DNA from: Candidatus Parcubacteria bacterium
Lineage (GTDB): Bacteria; Patescibacteriota; Minisyncoccia; Phycocordibacterales; UBA918
Length of the DNA stretch: 57,114 bases
Assembly: GCA_039799085.1 (NCBI GenBank)
Contig: JBDLTL010000002.1
Location: 1-57,114 of the forward strand
Direction: 5' to 3'
The notes below the pieces were generated by a model. It was given only the letters and a program-made list of their open reading frames with translations. It ran no database searches and had not been told where the DNA came from. Made by a program: the position numbers and the translations under genes. Positions 14,663 through 45,206 of the stretch are shown one piece after another; the stretch's first letter is position 1, and every line of letters begins with the position of its first letter.

Positions 14663-14763
14663 GTAGCGTCGATAATAACATATTTCTATATTAAATTAAA
14701 ACCGTGTTATATAATTTTAGAAATCTCACTTTAAGATAAAAAAGTAATTAAATTCTTGTAGCA

Positions 14764-16932: not shown

Positions 16933-17540
16933 GTCGAGTCCATTCTCCCAAAAGTCTAATTTTAGAAGGTGTTTCTGGCTCTGGAAAGACGACGATATAT
17001 CAAAATTTAGCCAGATACGCGATTGAGCATTCTATTAAATCAGAATTTGTTTCTGAGGAAAGAACTGTTTTAAAAATGTTGGATTCCACTGTACTTTCTG
17101 ACAATGTAGTGTATTTATTAAATTTGTTAGATATAACTTACTTAGATCAAAAGGATTTAACTGTTTTTGACAGGTTTCATTTTACACACACAATCAAAAC
17201 GAACGCAGGTCTTGATGATTTCAAAGAGGTTGAAGATATTCTTTTAGCCAAGGAGACGATTATTTTGTTTCTGCGCGTTTCTAAGAAGGAAATGTACGAT
17301 AGATTTAATAAAGCCTTAAAGTACAAATCAACAAAGTGGGTTAATTACATGAGGAAAGCTGGATTGGTTAGCACTGAAGATCTTGTGGAATATCATTTCG
17401 CACGCCAAAATTATTTCGAGAATTTATTAAACTCCACTCGATTGGAGCATTCTATTTTAGATGTCGCCGATTATAATTATATAGATTTGACTTACAAAAT
17501 TATTGATATTCTCCAGATAGAACCTGGTCAACTTTTGTGA
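16929..17540 (+). CDS. P-loop kinase-like protein (dNK/NMP-kinase fold)
   Basis: Walker A LILEGVSGSGKTT and a DRFHFTH segment. The start overlaps the upstream stop as ATGA. Confidence 0.55.
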   Translation: MSRVHSPKSLILEGVSGSGKTTIYQNLARYAIEHSIKSEFVSEERTVLKMLDSTVLSDNVVYLLNLLDITYLDQKDLTVFDRFHFTHTIKTNAGLDDFKEVEDILLAKETIILFLRVSKKEMYDRFNKALKYKSTKWVNYMRKAGLVSTEDLVEYHFARQNYFENLLNSTRLEHSILDVADYNYIDLTYKIIDILQIEPGQLL

Positions 17541-19257
17541 GCAGGTAGTCTCCGATTGCCAAGTATTTCAAGTCGCTGTTAATAAAAGTTTTGACTGCGT
17601 CTAAGGGACTCTCTACAATAGGTTCCCCGTGTAAGTTAAAACTTGTATTCAATATTACGCTTTCGCCAGTGATTTCTTTGAAGTATTTTATTAAATTATA
17701 GTACTTACTATTATTTTCGTAACTAACCATTTGAGGTCTGCAGGTTTTATCGCTTGGGTGAATGGCGGCCTGCATAGATGATTGTTCGCTAAGTTTTGTA
17801 TGAAAACCAAGTGCCATATAAGGAGAAAAATAGCCTCTTTCATTATATAAGTATTTCACACTGTCTTCTAAAAGAATGCTGGGCGCAAAGGGCATCCAGA
17901 AATCTCTACATTTTATAGAGTCGTTAATTTTTTGCACAATTCCAAATATGGAAGGATTCGCTAATATCGACCTGTTTCCTAATCCTCGCGCACCCCACTC
18001 CATTCGGCCGTTAAATCGCGCGACAATCTCTCCGACTGATAACAATCTTGCAATTTCCTTTTCAATTTTTAAATTTTCGTCAAAAAAAGTAATCGATACT
18101 TTTTGATTTTGAATTGAACTTATACACTTAAAAATATCATTATTGTTGTATTCTGTTCCTAAGTATAAGTCATTAATCCTCCGCGGTGTAAAACCGTTTG
18201 TTGCATGAAAACCATAGTATGCTGCACCAATTGCTAGCGATTCATCCCCGCAGGATGGTGTAACCTGAAAATCTTCAAGATCTAGGGTCTCTAATAGTCT
18301 CTGGTTCATTTTAATGTTCATGAAGACGCCGCCACTTACAGATATTTTTTTACAATCGTATGTATTTATAGTTTCTGATAGTAATTCGAGAACAGTTTCT
18401 TCTGTAAAATTTTGAATAGCCAGTGCCAATTCATCAAATCTATAATTCAAAAAATTCTGCACTAGCATATCCAAGTGTGCGAATTTCATATCGAAATTAC
18501 TACTCAATGAAAGGGTTTTTCTATTGACTCTAAGAATTTTACGGAAATACTCGAGAGGTTCTCTGTCAGAGCCCTGTCTGGCGTATGGAGCCATTCCCAT
18601 TACCTTAAATTCATGTTCGTTTTCTCGCATGGCTAGCAATTGCGTTACCTTTGAATATAAAATTCCAAGCGATGATTTTTTGTCTGTTGTGGCCAGCCTA
18701 ACTAGCTTGTTATTCTGAAATGATGATATTGATCCTGATTCACCATCGCCCTCTCCATCGAGTGTGATAATAAATCTGCCATCTCTATCATCAGTAAAAG
18801 CTAACGCCGTCCATGCATGTGAGTCGTGATGATTGAGGTTAATGATGGGTGTGCCTGGAAAAAGCTCGCCCAAAATTAGCGATATCTTTCTGTGCAAAAT
18901 GAAACCTCGAAAGTATTTATAGAACCCCCTTACTTCATCGTATAATTCAGTCAGTCCGATCTTGTAAAATAGAACAGAAGCAAAATACTTTTGCTTTCTG
19001 CGTTTTCTCAGATTTATATTTTTGTCTATACTAAACAGTGCAGTTTTATACTTACCATTAGCAGATACGGTTACTACTTTATCAAAGTTACTGATTTTGT
19101 ATTTTTCTTTAATATAGTTTACTGACAAGTAGGGAATGCCACGATGCCCTTTTTGTCTAGAAAACCTTTCTTCGTTTATTGCTTCTATTAATAAATCATC
19201 ACATAGAAGAGCTACACCTGCATCGTGACCAACATTAACACCTAAAATATATTTCAT
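17500..19257 (-). CDS. Carbamoyltransferase (NodU/CmcH family)
   Basis: N-terminus ILGVNVGHDAGVALL..EAINEERFSRQKGHRGIP, and a C-terminal LNTSFNLHGEPIVESPLDA motif typical of the family. Confidence 0.85.
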   Translation of the reverse strand: MKYILGVNVGHDAGVALLCDDLLIEAINEERFSRQKGHRGIPYLSVNYIKEKYKISNFDKVVTVSANGKYKTALFSIDKNINLRKRRKQKYFASVLFYKIGLTELYDEVRGFYKYFRGFILHRKISLILGELFPGTPIINLNHHDSHAWTALAFTDDRDGRFIITLDGEGDGESGSISSFQNNKLVRLATTDKKSSLGILYSKVTQLLAMRENEHEFKVMGMAPYARQGSDREPLEYFRKILRVNRKTLSLSSNFDMKFAHLDMLVQNFLNYRFDELALAIQNFTEETVLELLSETINTYDCKKISVSGGVFMNIKMNQRLLETLDLEDFQVTPSCGDESLAIGAAYYGFHATNGFTPRRINDLYLGTEYNNNDIFKCISSIQNQKVSITFFDENLKIEKEIARLLSVGEIVARFNGRMEWGARGLGNRSILANPSIFGIVQKINDSIKCRDFWMPFAPSILLEDSVKYLYNERGYFSPYMALGFHTKLSEQSSMQAAIHPSDKTCRPQMVSYENNSKYYNLIKYFKEITGESVILNTSFNLHGEPIVESPLDAVKTFINSDLKYLAIGDYLLTKVDQVLSGEYQ

Positions 19258-19539
19258 GATATTGAAGAGAATAGACCAATATATTGTAATGTATTAAAAA
19301 GCAGAAGTTGTGTATTTGTGTAGATAATCTAAAACAAATAAGTGACGGATACTAAAATACCTCTGGAATATTGGGTGTTTGCTCGTTCATATGTAAGGGC
19401 GATGGTATCACGAAATAGGGGATTTAAAAAACGTCCGGGCCGCTCTATTTCTCTTGCGTTGTGTGAGCAAAGGAGTACAATTTTGTAAACGTTGAGCCTG
19501 CTGTGCCCCGGTAGCCACCCTTATAAAAATCGTAACAAA

Positions 19540-20151
19540 ATGCTTATGTCAGAGATAATTCTTTATCCGACAGAGACGGTGTATGCGCTTGGGGTCAATC
19601 CCTTCGATCGCACCGCATGGCACGACCTCTGTGAACTCAAAGGTCGTCATGGTGATCAGACGGCAAGTTGGCTCCTGCCATCGATTGAAGATATTAGTTC
19701 TTATGCTGAGGTGACTCCCAAAGCAAAGGAGCTTATAGAGCGCTACATGCCGGGACCGTTTACTATTGTGCTCAAAGCCAATAGCTACATTCCGCGCTCC
19801 ATGCAAGCACTTGATGGAACGGTGAGTTTTAGGGTGTCATCAGACCCCGTTGCCAAGCAACTCATTGAAGAGTACATGGCAGTTCATAATGTACCGCTCA
19901 CCTGTACTAGCGCCAATCTTCACGGTCAGCCGACAATGGGCACGCCACAAGATATTGCTCGGCAATTTGGTGATAAGGTGCAAATGATTACCAAGATTAT
20001 CGACGACGGTCCTAGAATGGGTCGCCCATCAACTATTGTGCGATGTGTCGACAATCAGGTGTCAGTACTTCGTCAGGGAAGTGTGAAGATTAATATAGAA
20101 GAGGCAGAATCAGTGGTTAGATCAAGCTATCTAGTCAGGGTGGAGTTGTAG
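19540..20151 (+). CDS. tsaC: L-threonylcarbamoyladenylate synthase (TsaC/YrdC/Sua5 family)
   Basis: YPTETVYALGVNPFD, KGRHGDQ and LTCTSANLHGQP motifs. The track start TTG 19492 was replaced by ATG 19540. Confidence 0.85.
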   Translation: MLMSEIILYPTETVYALGVNPFDRTAWHDLCELKGRHGDQTASWLLPSIEDISSYAEVTPKAKELIERYMPGPFTIVLKANSYIPRSMQALDGTVSFRVSSDPVAKQLIEEYMAVHNVPLTCTSANLHGQPTMGTPQDIARQFGDKVQMITKIIDDGPRMGRPSTIVRCVDNQVSVLRQGSVKINIEEAESVVRSSYLVRVEL

Positions 20152-22539: not shown

Positions 22540-22614
22540 TGGTGCGCGATGGAAGGATTGAACTTCCGGCCTCTTCAATGTCAATGAAGCGCTCTACCAC
22601 TGAGCTAATCGCGC
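22540..22614 (-). tRNA. tRNA-Val (anticodon GAC), CCA encoded
   Basis: Manual cloverleaf: GCGCGAT TA GCTC AGTGGTA GAGC G CTTCA TTGACAT TGAAG AGGCC GGAAG TTCAATC CTTCC ATCGCGC A CCA. Confidence 0.95.
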
Positions 22615-31795: not shown

Positions 31796-32161
31796 ATGCC
31801 CAAGAAGAAGGCTACACTAATAGATGAGCAGTCAAACGCTGAGGAAGCGGTGAAAAAATGCGTCGGCAAGAAAATCAGTGAGATGCGCAATCGCCTGAAC
31901 TTCAGTGCACTCACTGTGTCTGAACATCTAGGTATTTCCCGTGTGGCGGTGACCCAGATTGAGACTGGTAGAAACAACATCACTGCCGTCAGTCTCTGGA
32001 AATTGGCTACATTGTTTGGTTGTGAGGTTTCAGATTTTTTCCCTGATGTACCGGATGGATATGCGCTTACAAAAGTCGATATCCATAAGGTGGCTCAAGA
32101 AGACGAAAAGGCCGCAGTGTGGGCCGAAAAGATTTTCATAAAGAAAAAACATGATAAGTAG
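31796..32161 (+). CDS. XRE-family HTH transcriptional regulator (ImmR-like repressor)
   Basis: LNFSALTVSEHLGISRVAVTQIETGRNNITAVSLWKLATLFGCEV, a canonical XRE HTH. Confidence 0.85.
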   Translation: MPKKKATLIDEQSNAEEAVKKCVGKKISEMRNRLNFSALTVSEHLGISRVAVTQIETGRNNITAVSLWKLATLFGCEVSDFFPDVPDGYALTKVDIHKVAQEDEKAAVWAEKIFIKKKHDK

Positions 32162-32645
32162 AATTGAAAAAATAGCCGAGGACGTACTCACACATTTCAA
32201 ATTAGATGTGACTCCTGTTCCTGTAGAAGAGGTGGCGAGTCGTCTACAGATAAAAATCGGCAGAGAGCCTAGTGAAGATTTTTCTGGAATCCTTATACGT
32301 AAAGATGGTAAGGCGTTAATCGGTGTAAATAGTAATGAGTCTTTTGTTCGCCAACGATTTACAATTGCTCATGAATTAGGTCATTTTATTCTTCATAAGG
32401 AGAAGGAAACTTTTGTTGACTACCGTGATAATCAAAAGGAAATTATGAGAACACCTCGTGAGAAGCAGGCAAATGCTTTTGCCGCTGCTTTACTTATGCC
32501 TAGAACTAGACTTATTAAAGATGTAAAAGCTAAGTTTAAAGATGGTATATATGAAGAAGATCTTGTCGAGTTAGCAGAATTGTACGAAGTGAGTACAGAA
32601 GCAATGAAGTATAGACTAATGAATTTAAATTTGATTCACTCATAA
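32151..32645 (+). CDS. ImmA/IrrE family metallo-endopeptidase
   Basis: HELGHFILH zinc motif, overlaps the XRE gene end, and ANAFAAALLMP is typical of the family. Confidence 0.85.
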   Translation: MISRIEKIAEDVLTHFKLDVTPVPVEEVASRLQIKIGREPSEDFSGILIRKDGKALIGVNSNESFVRQRFTIAHELGHFILHKEKETFVDYRDNQKEIMRTPREKQANAFAAALLMPRTRLIKDVKAKFKDGIYEEDLVELAELYEVSTEAMKYRLMNLNLIHS

Positions 32646-33235: not shown

Positions 33236-34519
33236 ATGCAAAAGCTACAATGGGCAACTGTCCAGAAGAAAGTAGACGATCTTGTTCCGCAGGAAATTAA
33301 TCCTCGCAAGATCACCGACGCTCAGATGAAAGCTCTCACAGAGAGTCTGAAGAAGTTCAATCTAGTAGAGATACCAGCTATAGACGCAGATGGCACAATC
33401 CTTGCTGGTCACCAGCGTATTAAGGCACTTCAGCTCTTAGGTCGGGGTGAAGAATTAATCGACGTACGGGTACCAAACCGCAAACTCTCTGACAAAGAGT
33501 CTAAGCAATACCTCATAGGTTCAAACAAGCTCGGGGGCGACTGGAATTATGATCTCCTCAAAGCGTTCGATATGGACACTTTGTCTTTCGCTGGCTTTGA
33601 ATCAATGGAGCTAGCGAAGTTTTGGGACGAGGACAGCGCTACTAAAGAAGATGACTTCGACGTAGAAAAGGAACTAAAGAAAATCTTCACCCCTAAGACG
33701 AAACTCGGGGACGTTATTCATCTCGGGCGACATAAGCTTATTTGTGGCGACTCCACTAAACCAGAAACGCTTACTCGACTACTCGGCACTGAGCGAGCCT
33801 CGATGATCTACTCAGACCCTGTATATAACATTCAGGTGAACTATGACGGTGGAATCGGTGGTAAGAAAGAGTACGGCGGAAATGTAAATGACTCTCGTAC
33901 CTTTGAAGAATACCAGACGTTCATCAAGGATAGTCTCAGTGCCGCCCTTGCTGTATCAGAACCTAACACGCACGTCTTCTACTATTGCGACCAAATCTAT
34001 ATTGGACTGATTCAGGAGGTATATCGCTCACTGGGTATCGCAAATAAGCGAGTTTGTTTATGGCTTAAAAATTCGCAAAATCCCGTACCGAAAGTGTTTT
34101 GTAATAAGGCGTATGAGCCTGCTGTGTATGGTGTGCGAGGAAAGCCCTATCTAGCTGAGAGTATGCAGGATCTAAATGAAGTACTTAACAAAGAATTTAG
34201 TACAGGTAACGAGCTGATCACACAGGTTGATGATTTTATTGAAATATGGACCGCTAAGCGACTGTCTGCCAAAGACTACCAGCACGCCACCTCAAAACCA
34301 TTCACACTCCACGAAAAAGCGATTAAACGTTGTACCAAGCCAAATGACATTATCCTCGATAGTTTTCTTGGCTCTGGTAGTACGCTCCTAGCGGCTGAAC
34401 AGCTAGGACGACGAGTCTATGGTTGCGATTTAGAACCTCGGTTTTGCGACCTCATTATCAACCGCTTTGAAGCTATGACAGGCACCAAAGCAATCGTTGA
34501 ACGGTATGAAGAAAAGTAA
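33236..34519 (+). CDS. ParB-like nuclease domain fused to N4/N6 DNA methyltransferase
   Basis: N-terminal INPRKI...ILAGHQRIKAL (ParB/Srx motif). C-terminal SDPVYN (motif IV-like) and DSFLGSGST (motif I). Confidence 0.85.
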   Translation: MQKLQWATVQKKVDDLVPQEINPRKITDAQMKALTESLKKFNLVEIPAIDADGTILAGHQRIKALQLLGRGEELIDVRVPNRKLSDKESKQYLIGSNKLGGDWNYDLLKAFDMDTLSFAGFESMELAKFWDEDSATKEDDFDVEKELKKIFTPKTKLGDVIHLGRHKLICGDSTKPETLTRLLGTERASMIYSDPVYNIQVNYDGGIGGKKEYGGNVNDSRTFEEYQTFIKDSLSAALAVSEPNTHVFYYCDQIYIGLIQEVYRSLGIANKRVCLWLKNSQNPVPKVFCNKAYEPAVYGVRGKPYLAESMQDLNEVLNKEFSTGNELITQVDDFIEIWTAKRLSAKDYQHATSKPFTLHEKAIKRCTKPNDIILDSFLGSGSTLLAAEQLGRRVYGCDLEPRFCDLIINRFEAMTGTKAIVERYEEK

Positions 34520-34907
34520 GTCTGCTAAGCAGTTTCTTCTTGAACTGACTAAAGTACCGATTGTGCAGGTAGCGTGTGAGAAAGCTGGTCTGTCTCGTAA
34601 TACCGTCTATCGCTGGCGGAAGGAGGATAAGGAATTTGAGAAGAAAATGGATCAAGCCATCACTGATGGTGTGGCTTTAGTGAACGACATGAGCGAAAGC
34701 CAACTCCTCACCCTTATAAAAGAAAAGAACTTTCAAGCGGTACGATTTTGGCTCAATAAGCGCCACCCAGCCTACAAGGACAAGATTGAAGTAACAAGGG
34801 TAGGAACTATCGAAGAACTGACGCCCGAACAGGAAGTTACTGTGCGAAAGGCACTAGAAATGGCTCGCATTATTCCATCTAAAAAACATGATCATGATAA
34901 ACAATAA
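34506..34907 (+). CDS. Terminase small subunit-like HTH protein
   Basis: VACEKAGLSRNTVYRWRKEDKEFEKKMDQA HTH, located immediately upstream of the large terminase. Confidence 0.6.
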   Translation: MKKSKSAKQFLLELTKVPIVQVACEKAGLSRNTVYRWRKEDKEFEKKMDQAITDGVALVNDMSESQLLTLIKEKNFQAVRFWLNKRHPAYKDKIEVTRVGTIEELTPEQEVTVRKALEMARIIPSKKHDHDKQ

Positions 34908-36477
34908 CCCAATTTCAGAAGAACTATTTAACTCAATGAAGAAAGACCGTGTGGTACGGCAACAGATTATGAGTGGGAGCTTCAACTACTTCTTTCATTT
35001 CTACTTCGCTCACTACGTACAGTTTCCGACCGCTGCGTTCCAACGAGACCTTATCGGCAAGCTTGAGAATGAGCCTGACGAACACCTGTTTGTGGTGGCG
35101 TTTCGTGGGTCGGGCAAATCGACGATTGTAACGACAGCTTTTCCGATTTGGGCGATTCTCGGTAAACAAGAAAAGAAATTTGTTGTTATCTTTTGCCAGA
35201 CCCGAGTGCAAGCCAAACAGCACATGATGAATATTCGTAACGAACTAGAAAATAACCAATTACTCAAGAATGACCTCGGTCCCTTTAGTGAAGAGTCTGA
35301 CGAGTGGGGATCACATTCGATTGTGTTCTCAAACACTAAGTCTCGTATCACGGTCGCTTCGACTGAACAAAGTATTCGTGGACTTCGCCACCACCAACAT
35401 CGTCCAGATTTATTTATCTGTGATGACGTCGAGGACGTAGCCTCTACCAAAACCCGAGAGGGACGCAACAAGACCTATCAGTGGCTCACGGGTGATGTGA
35501 TACCAGCTGGTGACCAAGGCACACGACTCATAGTGATTGGTAACTTGCTCCATGAAGATTCTCTCCTCATGCGGTTGCGAGAGCGAGTCTTTAAGAAAGA
35601 ATTAGACGGAACCTTTATGTCTTGTGCAATTGCCGATGCTAAGGGAAAGTCTAATTGGCCAGGCAAATTCCCGAACGCTAAAGCTCTTGATAAAGAGCGA
35701 AAGAAAATCGGCGACGAAGTGGCATGGCAACGTGAGTATTTGCTTAATATTATTCCTGATGATGATCAGGTCATTCACCCTGATTGGATTCAGTACTATC
35801 ATGCCGACAAGTTGCCAGAAATTAATACGAAAGCCTATCGAGCGACGTATTCTGGCGTAGACTTGGCGATTTCAGTCAAAGACACGGCAGATTGTACGTC
35901 GATGGTATCGGCTCGGATTTATGGCAGGAACGAGAAACTCCGAGTTTTTATCATGCCTCAACCGTACAATCAGCGACTAACATTTCCGCAACAGGTGGAG
36001 TTGATGAAAGTCCACAAGAAGACTGTTCTTAATCGCAGTACCGATAAACTCATTATTGAAAGTGTTGGCTACCAAGACGCACTTGCTCAGATGCTTGACT
36101 CGCAAGGAGTCGATGCTGAGTCGGTAAAACCACATAACGATAAACGAACCCGACTGGCTCTTACGTCATCTATGATCCGCAATGGTACCGTTCTCTTCCC
36201 AGACAAGGGGTGCGAGCAGTTACTTCAGCAGATGATTGGGTTTGGTGTAGAAAAGCACGATGACTTAGCTGATGCATTCTCACTCCTTGTTCTCAAAATC
36301 GTTGAAGACTTTACTCATGAAAGTACTTTCCTCATGGCGTGGCTCGGTGACGGTGATATGGATGATAATGTCTTGTGGTACAACGACTACCGTGACGTTC
36401 TCCAAGACGTTGACTGCTTGCTTCCAAAAGCTAAAGAACAGATCGAGATAATTTTTACCAAGGATAGACGACGTTAA
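34888..36477 (+). CDS. Phage terminase large subunit
   Basis: Walker A VAFRGSGKST, Walker B LFICDDVED, and a C-terminal RNaseH-like nuclease region (GVDLA...DD..DA). Confidence 0.8.
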   Translation: MIMINNNPISEELFNSMKKDRVVRQQIMSGSFNYFFHFYFAHYVQFPTAAFQRDLIGKLENEPDEHLFVVAFRGSGKSTIVTTAFPIWAILGKQEKKFVVIFCQTRVQAKQHMMNIRNELENNQLLKNDLGPFSEESDEWGSHSIVFSNTKSRITVASTEQSIRGLRHHQHRPDLFICDDVEDVASTKTREGRNKTYQWLTGDVIPAGDQGTRLIVIGNLLHEDSLLMRLRERVFKKELDGTFMSCAIADAKGKSNWPGKFPNAKALDKERKKIGDEVAWQREYLLNIIPDDDQVIHPDWIQYYHADKLPEINTKAYRATYSGVDLAISVKDTADCTSMVSARIYGRNEKLRVFIMPQPYNQRLTFPQQVELMKVHKKTVLNRSTDKLIIESVGYQDALAQMLDSQGVDAESVKPHNDKRTRLALTSSMIRNGTVLFPDKGCEQLLQQMIGFGVEKHDDLADAFSLLVLKIVEDFTHESTFLMAWLGDGDMDDNVLWYNDYRDVLQDVDCLLPKAKEQIEIIFTKDRRR

Positions 36478-36553: not shown

Positions 36554-37831
36554 ATGACAGAGGTATTACAAAGCGACTATAAATACGTCCTATACGCACG
36601 TAAGTCGACCGAAGGCGATGAAAAACAAGCTCTTTCAATTGATTCACAGATTAAAGAAATGACTCAAATTGCTGAACGAGAGAAGCTCAATATTGTTGAG
36701 ATAAGACGAGAGTCTCACTCAGCTAAAGAATCAAGTCAGCGTCCTGTATTTGAGGAAATAGTACGAGATATCGATAACGGCATTTTTAATGCCGTTATCA
36801 CATGGGCTCCTGATAGACTTTCTCGTAATGCAGGCGACCTAGGCAAGCTTGTAGACCGAATGGACCAGAAGAAACTCATAACGATAAAGACTTTTGGACA
36901 AAACTTCACAAATTCACCAAGTGACAAGTTTCTCCTCATGATCTTGTGTTCGCAAGCCAAGCTCGAGAATGACAATAAAAGTATCAATGTGAAGCGTGGT
37001 ATGAGAACGAGGTGTGAGATGGGCTTGTGGCCAGCTCAGCCACCAACGGGGTACCGAAAAGTTGATGGGCGACTTGCAAAATGCGAGGTGGAAATTGATC
37101 CTGAAAGAGCTGATATTATACGGCAAGTCTTTGAAAAGATTGCCTATGAGAAATGGAGTGCTTCCAAGGTGCATGCGTGGCTTAAATACGATCTAAACTT
37201 CCGTACTTTACGTGGTTATCACTTAAGTATTGGGAATGTCTTCAAAATCATTAATAACACTTTCTACTATGGCAGATTTGAGTTCCCTCAAGGTTCTGGT
37301 ATCTGGTATGACGGCAAGCACACACCCCTTATAACCAAAGAGCTATTTGATGAGACCAGAAACTCAATCAAATCACAGGTCATAAAGTCACAAGGCAAGG
37401 AATTTGCCTTCACTCGAATGATGAAGTGTGGAGTTTGTGGATCGGGTATTACGGCTGACGAGAAATTCAAGAAACTCAAAGCTGGAGGAGTGAATCGTCA
37501 TGTCTACTATCGTTGTACCAAAGCAAAGGACAGAAGTTGCAAGAATCCAGCAATTAATGAGCCCGACTTAATTACAGCCATGACAAAAATGCTCGATACT
37601 ATCAGTCTTGATCAAGTGAAGCTAAACACCAAGCTGAATGCTGAAATTCAGAAGTTTAAGAAGCTTCAGGCGATGTTTCTAGGAAAGAAGAAGACTGAAA
37701 AGATCGAATCAATTGATGTGCGTGATTATGCAAGATTTGTACTCACTGAAGGAAGCGTACTTGAGCAGAGGTCTGTATTGGAGTGTATTAGCAGTGAATT
37801 GATTTTAAAAAATTCAATTATAAAAATTTAG
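36554..37831 (+). CDS. Large serine recombinase (integrase)
   Basis: Resolvase catalytic N-terminus YARKSTEGDEKQALSIDSQ, a recombinase domain, and a zinc ribbon CGVCGS...YYRC. Confidence 0.9.
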   Translation: MTEVLQSDYKYVLYARKSTEGDEKQALSIDSQIKEMTQIAEREKLNIVEIRRESHSAKESSQRPVFEEIVRDIDNGIFNAVITWAPDRLSRNAGDLGKLVDRMDQKKLITIKTFGQNFTNSPSDKFLLMILCSQAKLENDNKSINVKRGMRTRCEMGLWPAQPPTGYRKVDGRLAKCEVEIDPERADIIRQVFEKIAYEKWSASKVHAWLKYDLNFRTLRGYHLSIGNVFKIINNTFYYGRFEFPQGSGIWYDGKHTPLITKELFDETRNSIKSQVIKSQGKEFAFTRMMKCGVCGSGITADEKFKKLKAGGVNRHVYYRCTKAKDRSCKNPAINEPDLITAMTKMLDTISLDQVKLNTKLNAEIQKFKKLQAMFLGKKKTEKIESIDVRDYARFVLTEGSVLEQRSVLECISSELILKNSIIKI

Positions 37832-38817
37832 GTTTTCTTTTGGTAGTATTTATCCAGTTCCTTGAATATTTCAGGACTGTAATACATTTTTTTATTTTTC
37901 TTTGTGTCTAAATCTAGATACCTTGGTCTAGCATATTTGTAACCACCTATAGACTCAAGTGTCCTTTTTATGGCATGAAATTTTGGATTTGGCTTGAAAT
38001 CAATGTACCTCTCTTTACATGTTTCTTGTAACTTTTTAAAGGACAGTGGATATTTTGTCTGGAAAACATTGTCTTCTTCAACCTTTACCGGTACAGCTTT
38101 TGGATCGTCAGTATATCTAACTGACATAGCGGAGGTTGAATTACTCTTGACGAATTTAGTTTCGAGAGCCAGTCCAATATTGTGTGTCTTGCTTTCGTCC
38201 GATGGATATTTCTTTTCTTTCCGTTTAATAAAAGAGAGAATATTTTTAATCTGGATTGGAATTTTATTAAGTGAGTGACTTTCGAATTCAAATGGATGAA
38301 AGAAAGAAAGTGGCATCAAATAAAAATTGTATCTGCTCAGATCTTCTTCAAACCAGTCACGATTTATTGCTACGTAACTTCTAAGAGTTGCTGTACCAAT
38401 TTCCAACACCTTTTTACTAAATGATTTATCATCATTTGTGAAATGTACTGCGTTATCTCTGATCTCTACAAGCAACTCAATATTTTCTCGTAAGATTTTA
38501 TCCGGATTTGTTTTATCAAGTGCGGTATATATATCTATGGTTTGAGGATTGCCGCTTCGGTTAGTTGCTGGAAAAAATCTTTTCAGTACTTTGTTATCTT
38601 TAGTTCTTGTTTTCCCAGGTTTATAAATTGATTTTAGTACATTCTTGTTATCTTTTAATACTTTTGCTTTAAGAAGAAGTTCCCATGCATTTACCATTAA
38701 GATCGCAAAAGTTTCTTCACGATAATGGAAATCTGGTTTGTTGTATATTTCAATTGCTGAGACGGCAGCGGCAAGTGACTTATCAAGGAGATTCTTGTAT
38801 TTTTGTCGCTTTGCCAT
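37828..38817 (-). CDS. Uncharacterised 329-aa protein, last gene of the Type III R-M operon (N-terminus reminiscent of DUF3644; recalled, unverified)
   Basis: N-terminal AAAVSAIEIYNKPDFHYREETFAILMVNAWELLLKAK. It starts 6 nt after the res stop and overlaps the recombinase gene stop by 4 nt. Confidence 0.6.
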   Translation of the reverse strand: MAKRQKYKNLLDKSLAAAVSAIEIYNKPDFHYREETFAILMVNAWELLLKAKVLKDNKNVLKSIYKPGKTRTKDNKVLKRFFPATNRSGNPQTIDIYTALDKTNPDKILRENIELLVEIRDNAVHFTNDDKSFSKKVLEIGTATLRSYVAINRDWFEEDLSRYNFYLMPLSFFHPFEFESHSLNKIPIQIKNILSFIKRKEKKYPSDESKTHNIGLALETKFVKSNSTSAMSVRYTDDPKAVPVKVEEDNVFQTKYPLSFKKLQETCKERYIDFKPNPKFHAIKRTLESIGGYKYARPRYLDLDTKKNKKMYYSPEIFKELDKYYQKKT

Positions 38818-38822
38818 ATTTT

Positions 38823-41738
38823 TTAGAACAATTTACCTCCGGCCATAGCTTCACTAACTTTTGCCAGCTCGCAAATCTCACTTATTGAAGCATTATTACT
38901 CTTAAGACTATAGAAGTTATTTTCACCAAGTAACACGTATGACCACTCTCTACTCATTCTTTCTTCTGGTGGTAGTGAATTAGTTCGCTTCACCCAATCA
39001 ATTGTAGCAAGTTGTTTTTGCTTAACATTTTGATCATTCAGATCTTTGTCTGCTTTTGTTTCAACCAAGTAGATTTTATCTGTCGTCTTTATAATAAAAT
39101 CAGGAGAATACAAAGAAAGAAGACCGTCTGCACGAATGTATGAGATTGTTGCGAATGAGTGATAATACTCATTTACTTTAATAAGAGATTCAACATTTGA
39201 ATCTGAGTCTGCGTATTCCAGCAGGTTTTTTTCGAACTCACCTTTGTTAGACGGGTACGGTAAACGTTCGTATATAGTTTTTGCAATCTCTAGGGAGTAA
39301 TTTTCACGCATTCGAAGCTCTGTAACTTCGGAAAAATATCTCTTTTCAACTTTTGCCTCCGTAGGTTGAATTGACTGTTGCATGCTGAAAATAGCTTTAC
39401 CAATTTCCTTAACAATATGGTCTGTAATTAGACCGTTTTTAAGTAGCAGTACCTTCCAATTATTGTCTGCAAAAGGGTTAAAGTTGTCACCAAACAATCT
39501 GCTTCGAACATAACGATCTACTGTGCCAGCAATAGCTACCGTGTTTACTTGGAGAGACGGAAATACTTTATTCTTTCTCTGACTAATTCGATCAAGACGA
39601 TTTACAACGACTGAGACAATCTTTTGGAGGTATTCGTTGTAGCTTTGTGACTTAAACAATGCGCCATCTACTACATATTCTCCAAAACGTGTCTTTACTG
39701 TCATTTCTTCGGATACGAATTTTTCACCATCGGCAGCAAAAAACTTCCTCAGCTCTTCAAGAGGATACAATGTAAAAGGTTCAAGTGAAGTAACATCAAT
39801 TTCAGTCTCAACTAGTTCCTCATCAGCATCACGTACTATAAATGGCCAGAACAAGTCGTATTGAGGATAGTTTTCTCGTAGACCAACTTTGATAATGTCA
39901 CCTAGCACACCTTTACTGTCTTGAGGATCATCTCCAATCTCACCAAGTAATCCTTCTTTAAGGAGATCTTCATAGAATTGAATGAAGGCTGGGTGTTCAA
40001 TAATTGTTAAGATATCAAGATAGTTACTTGGCTCTCGTTTTTCCGAAAGAAGACGCCTACGATTATCTGCTTTGATTTCTAAAAACTCCGGCTCACGCCA
40101 CATCAAGCGAAGCCCTCGACCAATTGTTTGTTCAAGCAATATTGGGGCGGAAGAGGAGCGCAAAGGTACAACTACACAAATGTTACTTACATCAAAGCCT
40201 TCACGGAGCATAAGTACAGAAACAATAACTTTTGGATGTTCATGTTTGTCTACGTTGAAGAGTTTTTGCTTAACCTCTTTCCACTCATCTTCAGGAAGCT
40301 CTCCTTTACGGTTTGAATCAATACGCATTACATCATCATCTGAGAGACCCTCTGTTTTGAGAAAATCTTCAATAAATGGTGTCACTGTCGTATCTTCACA
40401 CATCACAAGCATCTTAGGATGTTTATTTGAAGCACCATTCTTATCCGCGGTAAAAGAGGTGAAGTGCTCCTCTAAAATACGGAGCTTGTTGAGTCCTGCA
40501 CGGAGCATCATTTTTTGTCCCTCTGACAACCCAACAACCACAGCATTTTCTCGGATAGCATTGTATTCAAGAGGTAAATCAACAAGCTCCTTTCTTTTAT
40601 CAATGACTATTGTCTTTACTAGACCACCACGGATTGCTGTCTTAAGATCAAAATCAACAATAACGTGTGGGAAATAGTGTTTTACTCGATTTTGCCCACT
40701 ACCAGTTACCTCGTACGGAGTTGCAGAAATGTCAATTTGAATAAAGCTAGATCCCTTTGAATGCGAGATAGCATTAAGACTCTTTTGCCACTCTACTTCT
40801 TTAATTTCACCATATGATTTGTTTTCATGAATGTGGTGAGCCTCATCATTCATTACCATTAAATCTGGAAGGTCTTTAAGAAATTCGATTTCCTTACCAC
40901 TTTGGTACTGCGAGTCGAGTGTGTCTAGACTATTTCCACCAGAAGTTCCTGGACGAACAGGAAAAACATCTCGAATAACACCGCCTATGTCATCCATGGG
41001 CGCACTGTCTTCAGTTATATCCTCATCAGTGATAAAGAGGTGCCAGTTTGCGATGGCAATTATTCCATCTCCAGTCACTTTTGTTCCGATTTCTTGTTTG
41101 CGAGCTACTGAGTTTTGTATAAAACCAAATATGTCATCCCGATAGCTTGGTGGTATGAAGGTCTCTCTAAATAAATATAGATCAGAGGTCTCAAAGTCAC
41201 GGTCACCAGCTGGTTTTTCTTTACCAAGATAAGCATCAAGGAGTCGCTCATACACGATGAGACCCGGGGCAACAAGAAGAAAGTTTTTTGTAAATTTACC
41301 AGTCTTTTGTTCCTCATATCGTGCGTTTAGGTATTGCCATACCAGTAATGCGTGCATGACCCACGTCTTACCAGTACCAGTTGCCATCTTTATGGCGTAT
41401 TTTGGTATCTCGTATTTCGACTTCTTGAACTCAGTCATGTCCATTTCAGACATGAGTTCAAATTCAGTAGTTTCGTATATCTCTCGTACTGACTTCACTC
41501 CGATTACTTCATGGAGATAGACCGTATTCAAGATAGCTTGTCGCTGACCTTCATGAAAGTTTGCATATCGTGTTTCAGTATGAGGAGAGGTAAACCAAAA
41601 TGTTAGTAAATCACGAGTTACAGGAGTGACTTTAGAGAGCAATTCACTATTTGCCCATGACTCATTTACCTTGTCCGTGAGTGAGCGTGCTAGCTTAAGT
41701 GGTATGTCACGTGTACCAATGTTTATTGGAGTTGCCAT
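38823..41738 (-). CDS. res: Type III restriction endonuclease Res subunit (SF2 helicase plus PD-(D/E)xK nuclease)
   Basis: MATGTGKTW (motif I), MNDEAHH (DEAH), ISATP (III), and C-terminal SPDFIIKT...YLVETKADKD nuclease motif. Confidence 0.85.
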   Translation of the reverse strand: MATPINIGTRDIPLKLARSLTDKVNESWANSELLSKVTPVTRDLLTFWFTSPHTETRYANFHEGQRQAILNTVYLHEVIGVKSVREIYETTEFELMSEMDMTEFKKSKYEIPKYAIKMATGTGKTWVMHALLVWQYLNARYEEQKTGKFTKNFLLVAPGLIVYERLLDAYLGKEKPAGDRDFETSDLYLFRETFIPPSYRDDIFGFIQNSVARKQEIGTKVTGDGIIAIANWHLFITDEDITEDSAPMDDIGGVIRDVFPVRPGTSGGNSLDTLDSQYQSGKEIEFLKDLPDLMVMNDEAHHIHENKSYGEIKEVEWQKSLNAISHSKGSSFIQIDISATPYEVTGSGQNRVKHYFPHVIVDFDLKTAIRGGLVKTIVIDKRKELVDLPLEYNAIRENAVVVGLSEGQKMMLRAGLNKLRILEEHFTSFTADKNGASNKHPKMLVMCEDTTVTPFIEDFLKTEGLSDDDVMRIDSNRKGELPEDEWKEVKQKLFNVDKHEHPKVIVSVLMLREGFDVSNICVVVPLRSSSAPILLEQTIGRGLRLMWREPEFLEIKADNRRRLLSEKREPSNYLDILTIIEHPAFIQFYEDLLKEGLLGEIGDDPQDSKGVLGDIIKVGLRENYPQYDLFWPFIVRDADEELVETEIDVTSLEPFTLYPLEELRKFFAADGEKFVSEEMTVKTRFGEYVVDGALFKSQSYNEYLQKIVSVVVNRLDRISQRKNKVFPSLQVNTVAIAGTVDRYVRSRLFGDNFNPFADNNWKVLLLKNGLITDHIVKEIGKAIFSMQQSIQPTEAKVEKRYFSEVTELRMRENYSLEIAKTIYERLPYPSNKGEFEKNLLEYADSDSNVESLIKVNEYYHSFATISYIRADGLLSLYSPDFIIKTTDKIYLVETKADKDLNDQNVKQKQLATIDWVKRTNSLPPEERMSREWSYVLLGENNFYSLKSNNASISEICELAKVSEAMAGGKLF

Positions 41739-41740
41739 AT

Positions 41741-43612
41741 CTATACTTTCTTAATTACGACACTTTCAAACCCAAATACATCAACTGCCTTAACGCATAC
41801 CGTACGGTCTTCTTTTTTCGGAACGAGAAAATCCACCTCATAAAGAACTCTCATAGAGTCTCCATCTTTTTCAGTATTTCCACGGTAATCTTGCCAGCGA
41901 CTTCGGAAAGTTACTCCGTCGTAGTCAGGATCAATGCTCCAATACTCAATGAGTGCCAATGAGTCTTCCGCAAGGATGTCTGATAGCTTTTCTTTATCCT
42001 TCTCATCAAGTGGCAAAATGTCTGCAGATAGAAGGGCGTAATAATCCAACGCAACTTTAATTCGTTCATCATCTCCATGATCACCTTCAGTTTTTTCAAT
42101 AGATTTTAGTACGAGATATTGAGGAGTAGAGAATCGAATTTTGCCACTATCGATAAGCTTTTTGTAACTAGCTTTTGTTTTAAGACGATCAATAAGGTCT
42201 GGAGGTATTACTGCCACATCGAGATTCTCATCATCAAGAGAACCCTTAGCATCTACAATGTCATGTGAAAAGTTCCAGCCAAGCACTACCACTTTTCGCC
42301 AACCACCCATGAATGTATTTCGTAATTCCTGTGCTTTCTTGAGTGTTGAAAGACCAGTTACTTTATTTGGCGAATCAACGTACACGAGTGTTTTTGATTC
42401 CTTGATGTATCCAAGATTTCGTTGACTTGATTCAGAGTCAGGGAAAGGAATCGCACCATATAGTTGCATTACCACTTGTGACAAGTCACCGATACGTTTA
42501 AATAACTTACTTCCAGCAATTGCTTCTTTTTGATAGTCACCGACTGATTGGTATAGAAAAGGTTTTGCATTTTGATCTATAAGTCGTTTTCGTGTGACCA
42601 TGCAAGCAGGTTTACCAAGATCGGACATTATCCATTTACGTCCAAGTCTTTCAGCAACAGCTCCAGTTGTACCCGAGCCCATAAAAAAGTCTGCCACAAC
42701 ACCACCTTCAGGGCATGATGAATCAATGATCCTTTGAAGTAACTTCTCGGGCTTCTGGGTATTATAGTTTACGAGTTCATTTCTAGACTTTACGTGACCT
42801 ATGGTCCATACATCATCAGATAATTTTGTATCACTCTTTAAATACTCCGCTTTATCACTATTGAATCCTGCAGCGTACTTGCTTCTATTTATCGTGCCCT
42901 CAGCATATTTCTCTCGAACGTACTCTGAACCGGAATTAAAATAAAAATTGTTTGCATTCTTTGCGTATCGGAATATGTTGTCATGTTTTCGTGGGAAAAA
43001 CGATTGCGTTACAGACATCGAGGGATAATGCCATATGATTTCGTTGATGAAATTTTCCTTGCCAAAAATTTCATCCAACAAAATTTTTGCATAATGTCCG
43101 ACATGCCAATCAATATGTACATATATTGATCCAGTGTCAGAAAGTAACTCTTTCATCAATGCAAGACGAGGATATAACATTTTAAGATAGGAAACAGTAC
43201 CGTCTTTCCATGTGTCTGAATATGCGAATTGTTCAATTACTGTTGGCTTTTGTTCAAGATCAGCGCCTGGAAGTACCACCTTTGAACGATAATCAGCTTT
43301 TGAGTCGAATGGAGGATCGATATAGATGAGATCAATCTTACCTCGCATTGAAGGCAGGCCAGTGGCAGGATCGCCAGCGAGGAGTGATTGCATCACTAAA
43401 AGATTGTCACCATAGACGAGTCGGTTCATCCAATCTGAAAATTGCGGAACCTCACCCATGAACATTCCTGCCGTTTCTTTTGACGGAAGTACCAGCTCGT
43501 TTGTCTGCAGACCAAGCTTGTTTGTGCTTGAGAGTCGCTCAAGTATCTCCTCAACTTCTTTTCGTCCATCTGCGACAATCTTTGGAAGTTCTTCTATCAA
43601 TGATTTTTTCAT
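41741..43612 (-). CDS. mod: Type III Mod DNA methyltransferase (beta-class N6-adenine)
   Basis: [10 protein letters not shown] (motif IV) followed by [21 protein letters not shown] (motif I). It ends 3 nt upstream of res. Confidence 0.85.
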
Positions 43613-43614
43613 AT

Positions 43615-43821
43615 TTATTTCAAAAGCTCGGCGGCTGTGACCCCAAGTACTTTGGCTAAGCTGGTAATTGTTGAAAGAGTAGGGTTTGTCTTGCCGTTCT
43701 CAATGTTGCTCACGAACGATTTATCTACACCAATTAGCTCGGCTAGCTGACTCTGGGTAATATTCTTATTAGCACGAAGCGTTTTAAGATTAGTACCCAG
43801 TTTTTTTGACTCCTCTTGCAT
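43615..43821 (-). CDS. XRE-family HTH protein, probable R-M controller (C) protein
   Basis: 68 aa with [32 protein letters not shown]. Its stop lies 3 nt before the mod start. Confidence 0.75.
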
Positions 43822-43868
43822 AGACAGAGTCTACCACAGTTAGTTGTATTAAACTACAACTTGTCTAC
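43821..43868. promoter_or_regulatory. Nested palindromes at the C-gene start (candidate C-boxes/operator)
   Basis: tagac-aga-gtcta (43821-43833), gttgta-ttaaac-tacaac (43843-43860) and gtctac (43863-43868). Confidence 0.45.
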
Positions 43869-43892
43869 ATGGTTTACCTCAGAAAAAAGTTG

Positions 43893-43898
43893 TATAAT
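43893..43898 (+). promoter_or_regulatory. -10 box (TATAAT) for the retron-like non-coding transcript
   Basis: A consensus TATAAT preceded by TG. It is followed within 4-8 nt by the a1 repeat. Confidence 0.5.
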
Positions 43899-43901
43899 TT
43901 C

Positions 43902-44095
43902 ATTGCTTACAAATAGAGCCACCTTTGTTTTTGTCTTTTAATCAAAAAGACTTCAGGGTAAAGACAGTAAGACCTGTTAATGCGTAACTGATGAGCTCCG
44001 CTCGACAGGTACGCACCACCAGTTAGTACCACCTTTGCTTTGTCCCTTGAGAGGTAGGTAGTCGAATACCAACAATAACAAAATTTGTAAGTAAT
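43902..44095 (+). ncRNA. Candidate retron msr-msd non-coding RNA
   Basis: a1 attgcttacaaat (43902-43914) pairs with a2 atttgtaagtaat (44083-44095), giving 13 bp with one G-U. AGAGC follows a1 directly. There is an internal 7-bp hairpin at 43933-43951, no credible ORF, and the region lies 5-prime of the RT gene. Confidence 0.45.
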
Positions 44096-44206
44096 CTGAG
44101 GTGGCCCCGTTATTGTCCACTTCAAAATAGTCACTATGGAATTAATTATTTCATTGTTGCTTATTTGGCTTATCGCAAGAGAAACCAAATAGGGACTAAG
44201 ACCTTA

Positions 44207-45088
44207 ATGGATAAAGTAGATATTTTTGCATCGAAACAATCCTTACTAAATCTCCTAGGCATTAGAGACAATTTTTTATATTCTGACTTTGCAAGTAAGT
44301 ATTCCGAAAGGGATTTTCCCAAAAAGAATGGTGGTGTAAGAAAAATTAAGCCACCAGCAAAACGCCTCAAAACTCTTCAAAGAGAGATTCTCGATAAAAT
44401 ATTAGTACATACAGATCAACTGGATTGCGTGTACGGCCTTTCAAAAGCAAGAGATTTAAAAGCAAACGCTTTATTACACATAAAAAGTTCTGATCACTTT
44501 TTATTAAATCTTGATATAGAAAACTTTTTTCCTAGTTTAAGTCGAAAAAGAGTTCTTAATCTATTTCGACAAATTGGCTTTTCAAAAGAAAATGCAACTA
44601 TACTCACAAAGTTTAGTACTGTTGATAATTCATTACCTCAAGGCGCTCCTACTAGCCCTTATTTAGCGTCTCTAGCCTGTCAGAAAATGGACAGAAAACT
44701 ATATAACTACTGTCGTAGGAGAAACCTAATTTATTCAAGGTACTTTGATGATATTAGTATTTCAGGGGAGGTTGTTACTGAATCCAATGTTCAGGATATT
44801 AAGAATATGATCTCTGATTCTGGACTGACTTGTAATGAACAGAAAACTCATTTGTACTCATCTCTTGATAAGGAAAAGATAATTAATGGGGTCTTGATCA
44901 AGTCAGGAGCACTGTCTGTTCCAGAGCCTTACAAATCAGAGATAGAAGCCTGCTACAAGAAATATGTTTCTGAAAAGACTCTACAGTTGCAGAGAATATA
45001 TAAAGGTAAGATTGGTTTTTACATTTATATCAACAGAAAAGAAGCTCTTCTATTTGAAAAGGGTCTTAAAAATAAATACGGTGTTTAG
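44207..45088 (+). CDS. Retron-type reverse transcriptase
   Basis: GGVRKIKPPAKRLKTLQREI (RT1), VYGLSKARDLKANALLH (the NAxxH signature), LNLDIENFFPS (RT3), LPQGAPTSPYLAS (RT4), YSRYFDDISISG (RT5) and IINGVLIKSG at the VTG position. ATG 44207 is preferred over TTG 44165. Confidence 0.8.
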   Translation: MDKVDIFASKQSLLNLLGIRDNFLYSDFASKYSERDFPKKNGGVRKIKPPAKRLKTLQREILDKILVHTDQLDCVYGLSKARDLKANALLHIKSSDHFLLNLDIENFFPSLSRKRVLNLFRQIGFSKENATILTKFSTVDNSLPQGAPTSPYLASLACQKMDRKLYNYCRRRNLIYSRYFDDISISGEVVTESNVQDIKNMISDSGLTCNEQKTHLYSSLDKEKIINGVLIKSGALSVPEPYKSEIEACYKKYVSEKTLQLQRIYKGKIGFYIYINRKEALLFEKGLKNKYGV

Positions 45089-45131
45089 GTTTGATTTGAG
45101 CCTTCTCGAGTGCTCGAACCTGCTCTCTCTT

Positions 45132-45206
45132 TGGTGATCCTACGGAGAATCGAACTCCGATTTCCAGGATGAAAACCTGGCGTCCTGACCGTTAGACGAT
45201 AGGACC
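45132..45206 (-). tRNA. tRNA-Glu (anticodon TTC), CCA encoded
   Basis: Manual cloverleaf: GGTCCTA TC GTCT AACGGTCA GGAC G CCAGG TTTTCAT CCTGG AAAT CGGAG TTCGATT CTCCG TAGGATC A CCA. Confidence 0.9.

Follow-up and report, generated by a model that had tools for sequence, protein, structure and literature searches.

Introduction

Retron classes are defined by the annotated protein neighbours of the reverse transcriptase (RT). Retrons without such a neighbour are called orphans, among them those of the Retron-Eco5/Ec107 branch, which have no known effector and whose mechanism has been in question since Mestre et al. (2020, PMC7736814). In Type VI retrons the neighbour is a helix-turn-helix (HTH) protein of 91-110 amino acids (aa), encoded co-directionally, upstream of or overlapping the RT (PMC7736814; bioRxiv 10.64898/2026.04.27.721009). 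In the Type VI Retron-Vpa2, infection leads to multicopy single-stranded DNA (msDNA), which lifts the translational block on a small toxin whose ORF lies on the same hybrid RNA (Zhang et al., bioRxiv 10.1101/2025.10.22.683967); Retron-Sen3 is also a Type VI retron (Garcia-Rodriguez et al., bioRxiv 10.64898/2026.04.27.721009). This hybrid-RNA/small-toxin principle has so far appeared only in two preprints of 2025-26 on Type VI retrons. Here we describe a retron-type RT and the structured RNA upstream of it, at positions 43615-45131 and surroundings of a 57,114-nucleotide (nt) stretch of contig JBDLTL010000002.1 (the window), using computational, sequence-based evidence.

On balance we lean towards reading this locus as a compact retron of about 1.23 kb in Patescibacteria, whose third component would be a micro-open reading frame (micro-ORF) carried on a hybrid RNA. 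The structural parts of this reading we hold with high confidence, namely that the cassette is autonomous, that the micro-ORF is real, and that the neighbouring HTH gene and restriction-modification (R-M) genes are unrelated to it. A search of the available literature found no paper on Patescibacteria retrons or on retron micro-ORFs.

A retron-type RT in a clade without a recurring partner gene

The retron cassette comprises the following parts.

43871-45097, + strand: the whole cassette, a swappable unit of ~1.23 kb (promoter, non-coding RNA, micro-ORF and RT)
43890-43895, + strand: TATAAT, predicted -10 box of the non-coding RNA (ncRNA) promoter, from alignment reading only
43902-44095, + strand: msr-msd-like ncRNA, closed by a1 (43902-43914) and a2 (44083-44095)
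44136-44192, + strand: micro-ORF MELIISLLLIWLIARETK, 18 codons plus stop, with its ATG at 44136 and TAG at 44192
44207-45088, + strand: retron-type RT, 293 aa, intact (RVT_1, 2.7e-21)

The RT is of retron type, as the initial annotation had it. PADLOC retron RT models match it with E-values of 1e-58 to 1e-65, and its nearest solved structure, the Ec86 RT (E 7e-49), aligns end to end. Its start was set at ATG 44207 by alignment with homologue N-termini, and every residue invariant in its clade is kept, including N87-A88-x-x-H91 and Y179-x-D181-D182. The nearest NCBIfam model, retron_St85_RT, scores 179 bits, under its cut-off of 235. Among the PADLOC models, RT_III-A ranks first (218 bits), RT_II-A second (205) and RT_VI only third (195); at the control locus L082, a genuine HTH-RT Type VI locus, RT_VI scored 225 versus 167 bits.

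The RT belongs to a well-populated clade of ~290-aa proteins, 41-82% identical to it, found in Patescibacteria (metagenome-assembled genomes, MAGs, of Nomurabacteria, Paceibacterota and Saccharibacteria) and in freshwater, groundwater and wastewater metagenomes. A host gene flanking the island in which the window RT lies has its closest named relatives in Candidatus Parcubacteria and Pacebacteria (85-89%), and judged by sequence the host is a Parcubacteria/Paceibacteria-like member of the Patescibacteria. No RT relatives were found among IMG/VR viral contigs.

We surveyed the neighbourhoods of 19 distinct close-clade loci and of L007, a pseudogenised one. None of the protein genes immediately flanking the RT, on either side, recurs in this set. 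The downstream gene is convergent in most clade loci and co-directional in only four, where it differs each time (DUF3223/HamC-like, NUDIX, recombinase fragments, hsdM). A large serine recombinase is the sole protein family recurring within 4 kb of clade RTs (seven loci and the window), and tRNA-Glu recurs downstream of the RT in L001, L002, L006, L010 and L038-42. Although RT_III-A is the top model, the Type III-A effectors (PRTase-like and winged-helix proteins) are absent within ~4 kb in all clade members, and the nucleoside-deoxyribosyltransferase-like effector of Type II-A is absent from all clade neighbourhoods. The L001 DUF3223/HamC-like gene (L001:8890-9558; PADLOC HamC 2e-36), which overlaps the RT stop by 8 nt, is the only co-directional defence-type gene fused to the cassette in the clade.

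This survey agrees with the initial annotation in that the RT, with its upstream ncRNA, has no conventional annotated effector, an unusual arrangement. That annotation had also considered an orphan or decayed retron whose effector was lost on insertion at a tRNA, and its proposals were to fall if close homologues consistently kept a downstream effector deleted here. We found neither such an effector nor any other conserved partner protein in the clade, and the junction between RT and island end is the same in relatives. Since no downstream gene recurs in the clade, the deleted-effector scenario does not apply. The conserved micro-ORF described below is the only candidate for a third component.

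A covarying RNA with alternative folds precedes the RT

The gap upstream of the RT measures at least 340 nt in every clade locus and is the best-conserved part of the locus: nucleotide identity to the window ncRNA is 97% in L104 and 89% in L105, against 81-85% and 63-72% for the RT gene. The following elements were found in it.

P1 (a1/a2), core of 10 bp: 97% paired in 19 sequences, with 8/10 pairs compensatory
43916-43923, + strand: 5′ arm of P2, which pairs with 44100-44107 and competes with P4 for GGUGG
43933-43951, + strand: stem-loop SL1 (GUCUUUU...AAAAGAC), 100% paired in 19 sequences, with two covarying pairs
43955-44046, + strand: long hairpin of variable length, an msd-like template region predicted in the window, L104 and L001
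44042-44053, + strand: GUCCCUUGAGAG motif, single in the window and a tandem pair in all 18 relatives
44072-44123, + strand: H-type pseudoknot, in which P3 (44072-79 with 44109-16) is crossed by P4 (44098-104 with 44117-23) and a2 lies in the P3 loop
44162-44191, + strand: hairpin at the 3′ end of the micro-ORF (inverted repeat I5), present in the minimum free energy (MFE) folds of the window, L104 and L001

TATAAT or TACAAT is aligned in nearly all clade members, mostly as an extended TGnTATAAT, 7-12 nt before a1. A consensus sigma-70 scanner found no matching -35 element, and the promoter/terminator scan was uninformative for the ends of the ncRNA. A profile of the 3′ domain of the ncRNA matched every clade locus by nhmmer, with hits exclusively 70-90 nt upstream of the RT; no Rfam family matched at gathering or permissive E-value thresholds.

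The MFE fold of the window ncRNA closes on a1/a2 (z = -3.7), as do those of L104 and L001, and the a1/a2 helix spans 10-13 bp in alignments of 16 and 19 sequences. The closed domain holds a conserved stem-loop, the long hairpin and a small hairpin, the classical msr-msd layout. The long hairpin differs in length and sequence among relatives, as msd stems do, and by its predicted fold is the putative template for reverse transcription. Next to the RT there is thus what a retron ncRNA consists of, an a1/a2-closed structured RNA with an msd-like hairpin.

Covariation supports these helices. Over P1, SL1, P3 and P4, 95.6% of alignment cells are paired in the 19 sequences, compared with 42-47% when partners are slid; there are 20 compensatory pairs, and none of 500 shuffles reaches the observed values. 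Taken singly, P3 is 98% paired with 6/8 pairs compensatory and P4 is 95.8% paired with 3/7. P2 is 93.4% paired versus 30-51% in slid controls, with four pairs changed on both sides. Since P2 and P4 share GGUGG and both covary, the RNA adopts at least two mutually exclusive conformations. RNAalifold also predicts that GAGGU (44051-55) pairs over a long range with an ACCUY lying shortly upstream of the RT start; the two strands hardly vary, which puts the pairing beyond covariation testing. One further candidate, the I2 pairing of 44070-85 with the 5′ part of the micro-ORF, was dropped when it proved not to be kept in L031.

The window copy differs from its family in one respect. It lacks 16 nt (GTCCCTTGAGAGATTA) after 44041, the exact deletion of one tandem unit of the GUCCYUUGAGAG repeat. 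Among 19 sequences, only the window and an identical contig, L107, have the single repeat; the extra 16 nt are carried by all four RNA contigs described below and by DNA contigs of sequencing runs X3 and X5. Being short of one unit, the window copy may be impaired, so that it may be either a functional variant or a recently impaired one. We regard it as improbable that this copy is decaying or inactive within a functional family: the RT, the micro-ORF, the promoter and all covarying helices are intact, and the exact loss of a unit preserves pairing at the base of the msd stem.

The RNA is made in nature. Four independent metatranscriptomes (sediment, freshwater and two from wastewater) each yielded one contig matching over its whole length, spanning 43918-44169, 43917-44087, 43923-44192 and 43927-44186 in window coordinates. 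These four contigs indicate that the RNA is transcribed, micro-ORF included. No HTH or RT signal was found in the same four metatranscriptomes, even at 80% likeness. The ncRNA is apparently much more abundant than the flanking mRNAs, the source strains being different from that of the window and contig ends and depth being weak measures of a hybrid RNA. The RNA contigs from runs X25 and X20 start at 43917 and 43918, right after G43916. This is the first G past a1, the place at which the branching G of a retron would stop cDNA synthesis, but it is not conserved in the clade, and the coincidence is not diagnostic.

A micro-ORF under peptide-level selection

The initial annotation had seen only non-coding sequence upstream of the RT on its strand. 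This needs revision: the 385-nt gap between HTH and RT holds both the covarying RNA and the co-directional 18-codon ORF, which starts 12 nt past P4 and ends 14 nt short of the RT start. Gene callers have missed a micro-ORF that is transcribed and strictly conserved, in a clade of dozens of members across Patescibacteria.

At the aligned ATG, an ORF of 17-23 codons is present in 20/20 relatives, L007 included, over RT identities of 41-82%, whereas the other two frames are open in only 1/19 and 2/19. Between pairs of sequences, the three codon positions diverge by 0.43/0.25/0.54, and 98.6% of bootstraps keep the order 3>1>2. In frame, the ratio of nonsynonymous to synonymous change (pN/pS) is 0.54, versus 0.76 and 1.67 in the shifted frames, and length differences are multiples of three. 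The peptides follow the consensus M-[ED]-x-(x)-I-I-S-L-L-L-I-L-L-I-[IL]-[RK]-[ED]-polar. Leu and Ile columns use 3-9 different codons, and the conserved basic position is AGA, AGG, CGT, CGA, CGG or AAA, that is, five Arg codons from both families and one for Lys. Codon and residue patterns across these sequences show selection at the level of the peptide. We also considered a fusion to the RT, by frameshift or as an N-terminal extension; this was rejected, since the frame of the micro-ORF relative to the RT varies among relatives.

At L007 (7992-8870), the RT is broken into three ORFs by frameshifts or assembly errors, and the ncRNA domain and the micro-ORF MELILSLLLILLILRESQIRH are intact.

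More distant RT clades of the Candidate Phyla Radiation (CPR), 36-41% identical, carry hydrophobic ORFs of 55-86 aa in the same position, overlapping the RT start (L010, L013, L016, L043, L045, L011 and L061). These are preceded by an a1/a2 pair of their own (CCTTCCCGA / TCGGGAAGG) and end in a CATCGCC...GGCGATG hairpin able to pair also with a 5′ CATCGC. The arrangement is reminiscent, by analogy, of the wrap of the Vpa2 hybrid RNA (hyRNA), here without an HTH gene.

The main rival to our reading takes the micro-ORF as only a cis-regulatory leader, a Leu/Ile attenuator or a translational coupling device setting RT expression. The cassette would then encode no effector in cis, and would act through a host factor in trans or have a non-abortive role such as island maintenance. 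Several features suit a leader. The micro-ORF stop lies 4-13 nt before an RT start that is GTG in 15/19 distinct clade members, with no obvious ribosome-binding site, and in the distant clades the small ORF overlaps the RT start. The RNA contigs end at the hairpin that occupies the 3′ half of the micro-ORF, which would suit control by termination or read-through. The Leu/Ile runs resemble those of classical attenuation leaders, and orphan retrons without a known effector have been described (Mestre et al.). However, selection acts on the kind of residue and not just on codons: an acidic residue follows the start and a basic-acidic pair follows the hydrophobic run, and both persist although the codons that write them vary widely. 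An ORF that grows to 55-86 aa in distant relatives is also atypical for a mere leader. A leader and an effector role are mutually compatible, and we consider the leader-only reading unlikely.

A possible mechanism and its place among known retrons

That the peptide is the effector of the cassette is, by analogy, close to an even call, and we stop just short of favouring it. More tentatively, as a possibility rather than a probability, the 18-aa peptide could be the complete effector of a 1.2-kb retron, its translation gated by the two-state P2-versus-P4 RNA that reverse transcription remodels. Such a retron might work as follows. An abundant hybrid RNA would carry both the template for reverse transcription and the micro-ORF, and in the resting state the RNA fold beside the micro-ORF start would restrain translation. 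The RT would prime at the a1/a2 junction and copy the msd, as other retrons do. The first template nucleotides, 5′ of a2, would be the 5′ arm of P3; with this arm copied first, complementary DNA synthesis and removal of the template by RNase H are proposed to dissolve the P3/P4 pseudoknot. Without the pseudoknot the hydrophobic peptide would be translated and, through coupling, more RT as well. A membrane-active peptide would then damage the membrane, so that the infected cell is arrested and the infection aborted. The proposed derepression, and with it the direction of the switch, the production of msDNA, the toxicity of the peptide and a role in defence, would follow from the analogy with Retron-Vpa2. 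A locus such as L007, in which the RT is broken but ncRNA and micro-ORF are intact, fits activation by reverse transcription more easily than msDNA acting as antitoxin, as far as a single MAG goes.

Several observations weigh against this interpretation. The hydrophobic run is only 12-14 residues long, under the length of a bilayer-spanning helix and far under the 55-79 aa of the Type VI small proteins. The conserved hairpin under the 3′ half of the micro-ORF means that part of its conservation is at the RNA level. No Shine-Dalgarno sequence precedes the micro-ORF; the HTH, mod and RT genes of the window lack one as well. Alignment of the clade shows no conserved G directly after a1, where the branching G is expected, and PADLOC places the RT closer to types III-A and II-A than to type VI. 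The window copy has one of the two tandem units that all relatives carry. Finally, the RNA contigs are strandless, and their ends may reflect branching of the assembly graph where conservation stops.

By analogy of function, the window retron is most like Type VI (Vpa2, Sen3). Both encode a small hydrophobic or helical protein immediately upstream of the RT, and the small ORF apparently shares one abundant, structured transcript with the msr-msd here, as it does in Type VI. In both there is no enzymatic effector, and direct repeats lie inside the RNA. RNA-seq covers the ncRNA and the small ORF in Type VI, as the four contigs suggest for the window retron. Yet it falls outside the type on its RT model, its HTH and the size of its small protein. 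The window has no co-directional HTH between small ORF and RT, the ORF of its clade encodes 17-23 aa rather than a 55-79-aa protein with a helical fold, the hosts are Patescibacteria, and two competing pseudoknots stand directly upstream of the ORF in the RNA of the window clade. Retron-Eco1 (Ec86)/St85, of type II-A, provides the nearest RT structure and the nearest NCBIfam model and shares an upstream ncRNA with a1/a2 closure, but the window RT scores under the St85 cut-off and the nucleoside-deoxyribosyltransferase-like effector is missing. Like the orphan retrons of the Eco5/Ec107 branch, the locus has an RT and an ncRNA and no recognisable effector gene; unlike in these, a conserved micro-ORF occupies the position of the missing component throughout the window clade. 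Under current classification it would be an orphan or unclassified retron.

Outside retrons, very small hydrophobic peptides are known as type I toxins, such as Ibs (18-19 aa), TisB and ShoB. The window peptide resembles them in length and in extreme Leu/Ile content, and in both cases translation is presumably checked by RNA structure. It differs in having no antisense RNA partner, in being tied to an RT and a template RNA, and in showing no detectable homology to them.

If the peptide is the effector, the hybrid-RNA/small-toxin principle would also hold for another RT lineage and for peptides of far smaller size, and the resulting very compact retron (ncRNA, micro-ORF and 293-aa RT) could be of interest for retron-based tools. 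If the proposed mechanism is true, this would be the smallest tripartite retron known, CPR bacteria would follow the hybrid-RNA logic of Type VI in minimal form, with no HTH antitoxin, and hidden micro-ORFs would explain at least some "orphan" retrons.

The HTH and R-M genes form an independent cassette

On its other side the retron adjoins a divergent operon, and both lie between a recombinase gene and a tRNA.

36554-37831, + strand: large serine recombinase (SREC; Resolvase, Recombinase and Zn_ribbon domains), likely the island integrase
37828-38817, - strand: DUF3644/PDC-S19 gene (PDC-S19, 3e-116), 5 nt after res, overlapping the SREC stop
38823-41738, - strand: Type III res (ResIII, Helicase_C, REase_III 1e-24), 2 nt after mod
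41741-43612, - strand: Type III mod (MTase_III, 2e-81), 2 nt after the HTH gene
43615-43821, - strand: 68-aa XRE HTH, leader or controller of the R-M cassette, outside the retron
43842-43861: operator-like dyad AGTTGTA-N6-TACAACT upstream of the HTH gene, a predicted operator invariant in eight loci, five of them RT-less
45098-45131, unstranded: island terminal sequence, att-like by conservation of a 22-mer, abutting the tRNA 3′ end
45132-45206, - strand: tRNA-Glu(UUC), the integration target (ARAGORN and Rfam, 63 bits)

We reproduced the layout first reported: the nearest protein gene is the divergent 68-aa XRE HTH, packed with mod and res at 2-nt spacings, and the RT stop at 45088 lies 43 nt from the 3′ end of tRNA-Glu. 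Mod methyltransferase and Res helicase-nuclease in one operon make the system Type III R-M. As in C-protein R-M systems, a small XRE HTH comes first, packing is tight, and an invariant palindrome, the predicted operator, lies upstream; unlike in those, one near-invariant 68-aa family serves Type I, MmeI-type and Type III systems in CPR bacteria. The HTH presumably binds the dyad, to judge by its invariance ahead of the gene.

The initial annotation had offered two links between HTH or R-M genes and the retron, an HTH-type retron whose HTH is shared with the R-M system, and a retron functionally coupled to Type III R-M. Neither survived comparison with relatives. The HTH family is very large and nearly length-invariant at 68 aa (487 clusters at E<1e-8). 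Homologues of the window HTH at 99% and 94% identity head the same HTH-mod-res(-DUF3644)-SREC order without an RT, and one at 81% leads a Type I hsdM-hsdS-PIN-hsdR operon. The same R-M operon occurs without an RT in L108, L109, L111 and L112, and the HTH heads RT-less R-M operons in these and in L115-117, keeping its dyad in RT-less loci. It is missing beside 16/19 distinct RT-clade members, and jackhmmer found its relatives among small ORFs beside clade RTs only in the window, L104, L105 and L082, the true Type VI locus. In L104, the closest RT relative (RT 82%), an HTH of 75% identity heads an MmeI-type enzyme; in L105 (RT 66%) one of 94% heads a truncated copy of the window mod gene. The divergences of HTH and RT are therefore discordant. 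Separate occurrence, discordant divergence and swapped cargo argue against a shared HTH and against a specific retron-R-M link, and by these comparisons the HTH is the own controller of an independent R-M cassette and not part of the retron. The tempting retron-R-M link is corrected accordingly, and near-identical islands with and without the cassette amount to natural swap experiments.

We give scarcely any credence to a Type VI retron with an inverted HTH that doubles as R-M controller. In PADLOC the HTH matches HTH_VI best (6e-16), by a small margin over the models for capH and C-protein (Control_protein 2e-12), and the proposed hybrid-RNA logic resembles that of Type VI. But the HTH family is linked to R-M genes independently of RTs, the protein has 68 aa rather than the 91-110 aa of Type VI HTHs and is encoded divergently, neither co-directional with nor overlapping the RT, and the RT does not score best on RT_VI, unlike that of L082. 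A third half-site, AGTTGTA, over the -10 box of the ncRNA was dropped as evidence for HTH control, being confined to the window and not found in L104 or L105.

Functional coupling of the retron to the Type III R-M system, through msDNA or RT sensing anti-restriction or through shared regulation of divergent promoters, is also very improbable. The two are adjacent with promoters ~70 nt apart, the three closest RT relatives all adjoin an HTH-led R-M cassette, and P0010 has a Type I hsdM downstream of its RT. The R-M type nevertheless varies among the relatives (Type III, MmeI-type, Type I). The near-isogenic islands L108 and L111, as well as L109 and L112, have the R-M cassette without a retron, and L001, L118, L119 and others have the retron without R-M genes. 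This pattern fits, on sequence comparison, co-residence in a defence hotspot, a variable slot at the tRNA-Glu-proximal end of a serine-recombinase island.

In the window, L108, L109, L111, L112, L115-L117 and L104, the distance from HTH to the first R-M gene is always 2-5 nt. One nearly invariant 68-aa HTH family with an invariant box thus heads Type I, MmeI-type and Type III R-M systems in CPR bacteria, and in these alignments looks like a portable controller module common to several R-M types. The DUF3644/PDC-S19 gene is found in L109 and not in L108 or L111, and looks by its distribution like an optional fourth gene of the R-M cassette.

An exchangeable slot at the end of a mobile island

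An exact copy of the 22-mer GAGCCTTCTCGAGTGCTCGAAC (45098-45119) is present in 12 further loci that were retrieved (L104-L109, L111-L113 and L115-L117), against 0 expected by chance. In L104-L106 it follows the RT and in L108 and L111 a 310-aa gene; L109, L112 and L115-117 have it immediately upstream of the HTH gene. The 3′ end of tRNA-Glu comes next in the window, L109, L111 and L115. The 43-nt spacer between RT and tRNA is a conserved island end and not random sequence. By position and conservation, GAGCCTTCTCGAGTGCTCGAAC probably belongs to the attachment site of the serine recombinase. No island-flanking direct repeats were found beyond chance, as expected for a serine recombinase. The GC content drops from ~0.47 to 0.35-0.41 over 37-45 kb and recovers past the tRNA. 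The 22-mer is an imperfect palindrome, kept letter for letter at island ends although the cargo differs greatly. In L115 it adjoins a partial tRNA-Glu 3′ end, and a complete tRNA-Glu lies ~230 nt away.

The retron is exchanged as a unit. L108 carries almost the window's island (SREC 95%, HTH 99%) with other cargo in the position of the retron: there, as in L111, the slot holds a DUF4238 gene (PADLOC DUF4238-Pers) and the 310-aa gene. In L112 the divergent neighbour is a T5orf172/PDC-S57 gene, and in L109 and L115 the HTH gene sits straight at the island end. Homology with RT-less islands ends at ~43870 on the HTH side and is picked up again at 45098, where the terminal motif starts, and a groundwater contig that fuses 43729 directly to 45094 represents the retron-less form. 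Conversely, in L001 the SREC gene (59% identical) is followed within ~15 nt by the ncRNA promoter and then the RT, with no R-M genes, and in L118 ncRNA and RT are flanked by host-type genes.

The slot cargo lies at L108:102-1923, L111:365-2186 and L112:88-1158, the last pairing the T5orf172/PDC-S57 gene with a 151-aa gene. Neither the 310-aa nor the 151-aa protein has a match, and the two may be new candidates for defence genes.

To the left of SREC lie an XRE regulator with an ImmA-like metalloprotease (31796-32645), a DNA methyltransferase (33236-34519), and small (34497-34907) and large (34888-36477) terminase genes; no capsid genes follow. A similar set of methyltransferase, terminase and recombinase is found near the RT in L003, L120 and L121. 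Its recurrence near clade RTs points to a phage-like or satellite-like integrative element as the carrier, and gene content suggests a satellite or remnant prophage.

A second low-GC stretch of the window (14000-20000; 0.33-0.41 versus ~0.47), a few kb from tRNA-Val (22540-22614), may be another island.

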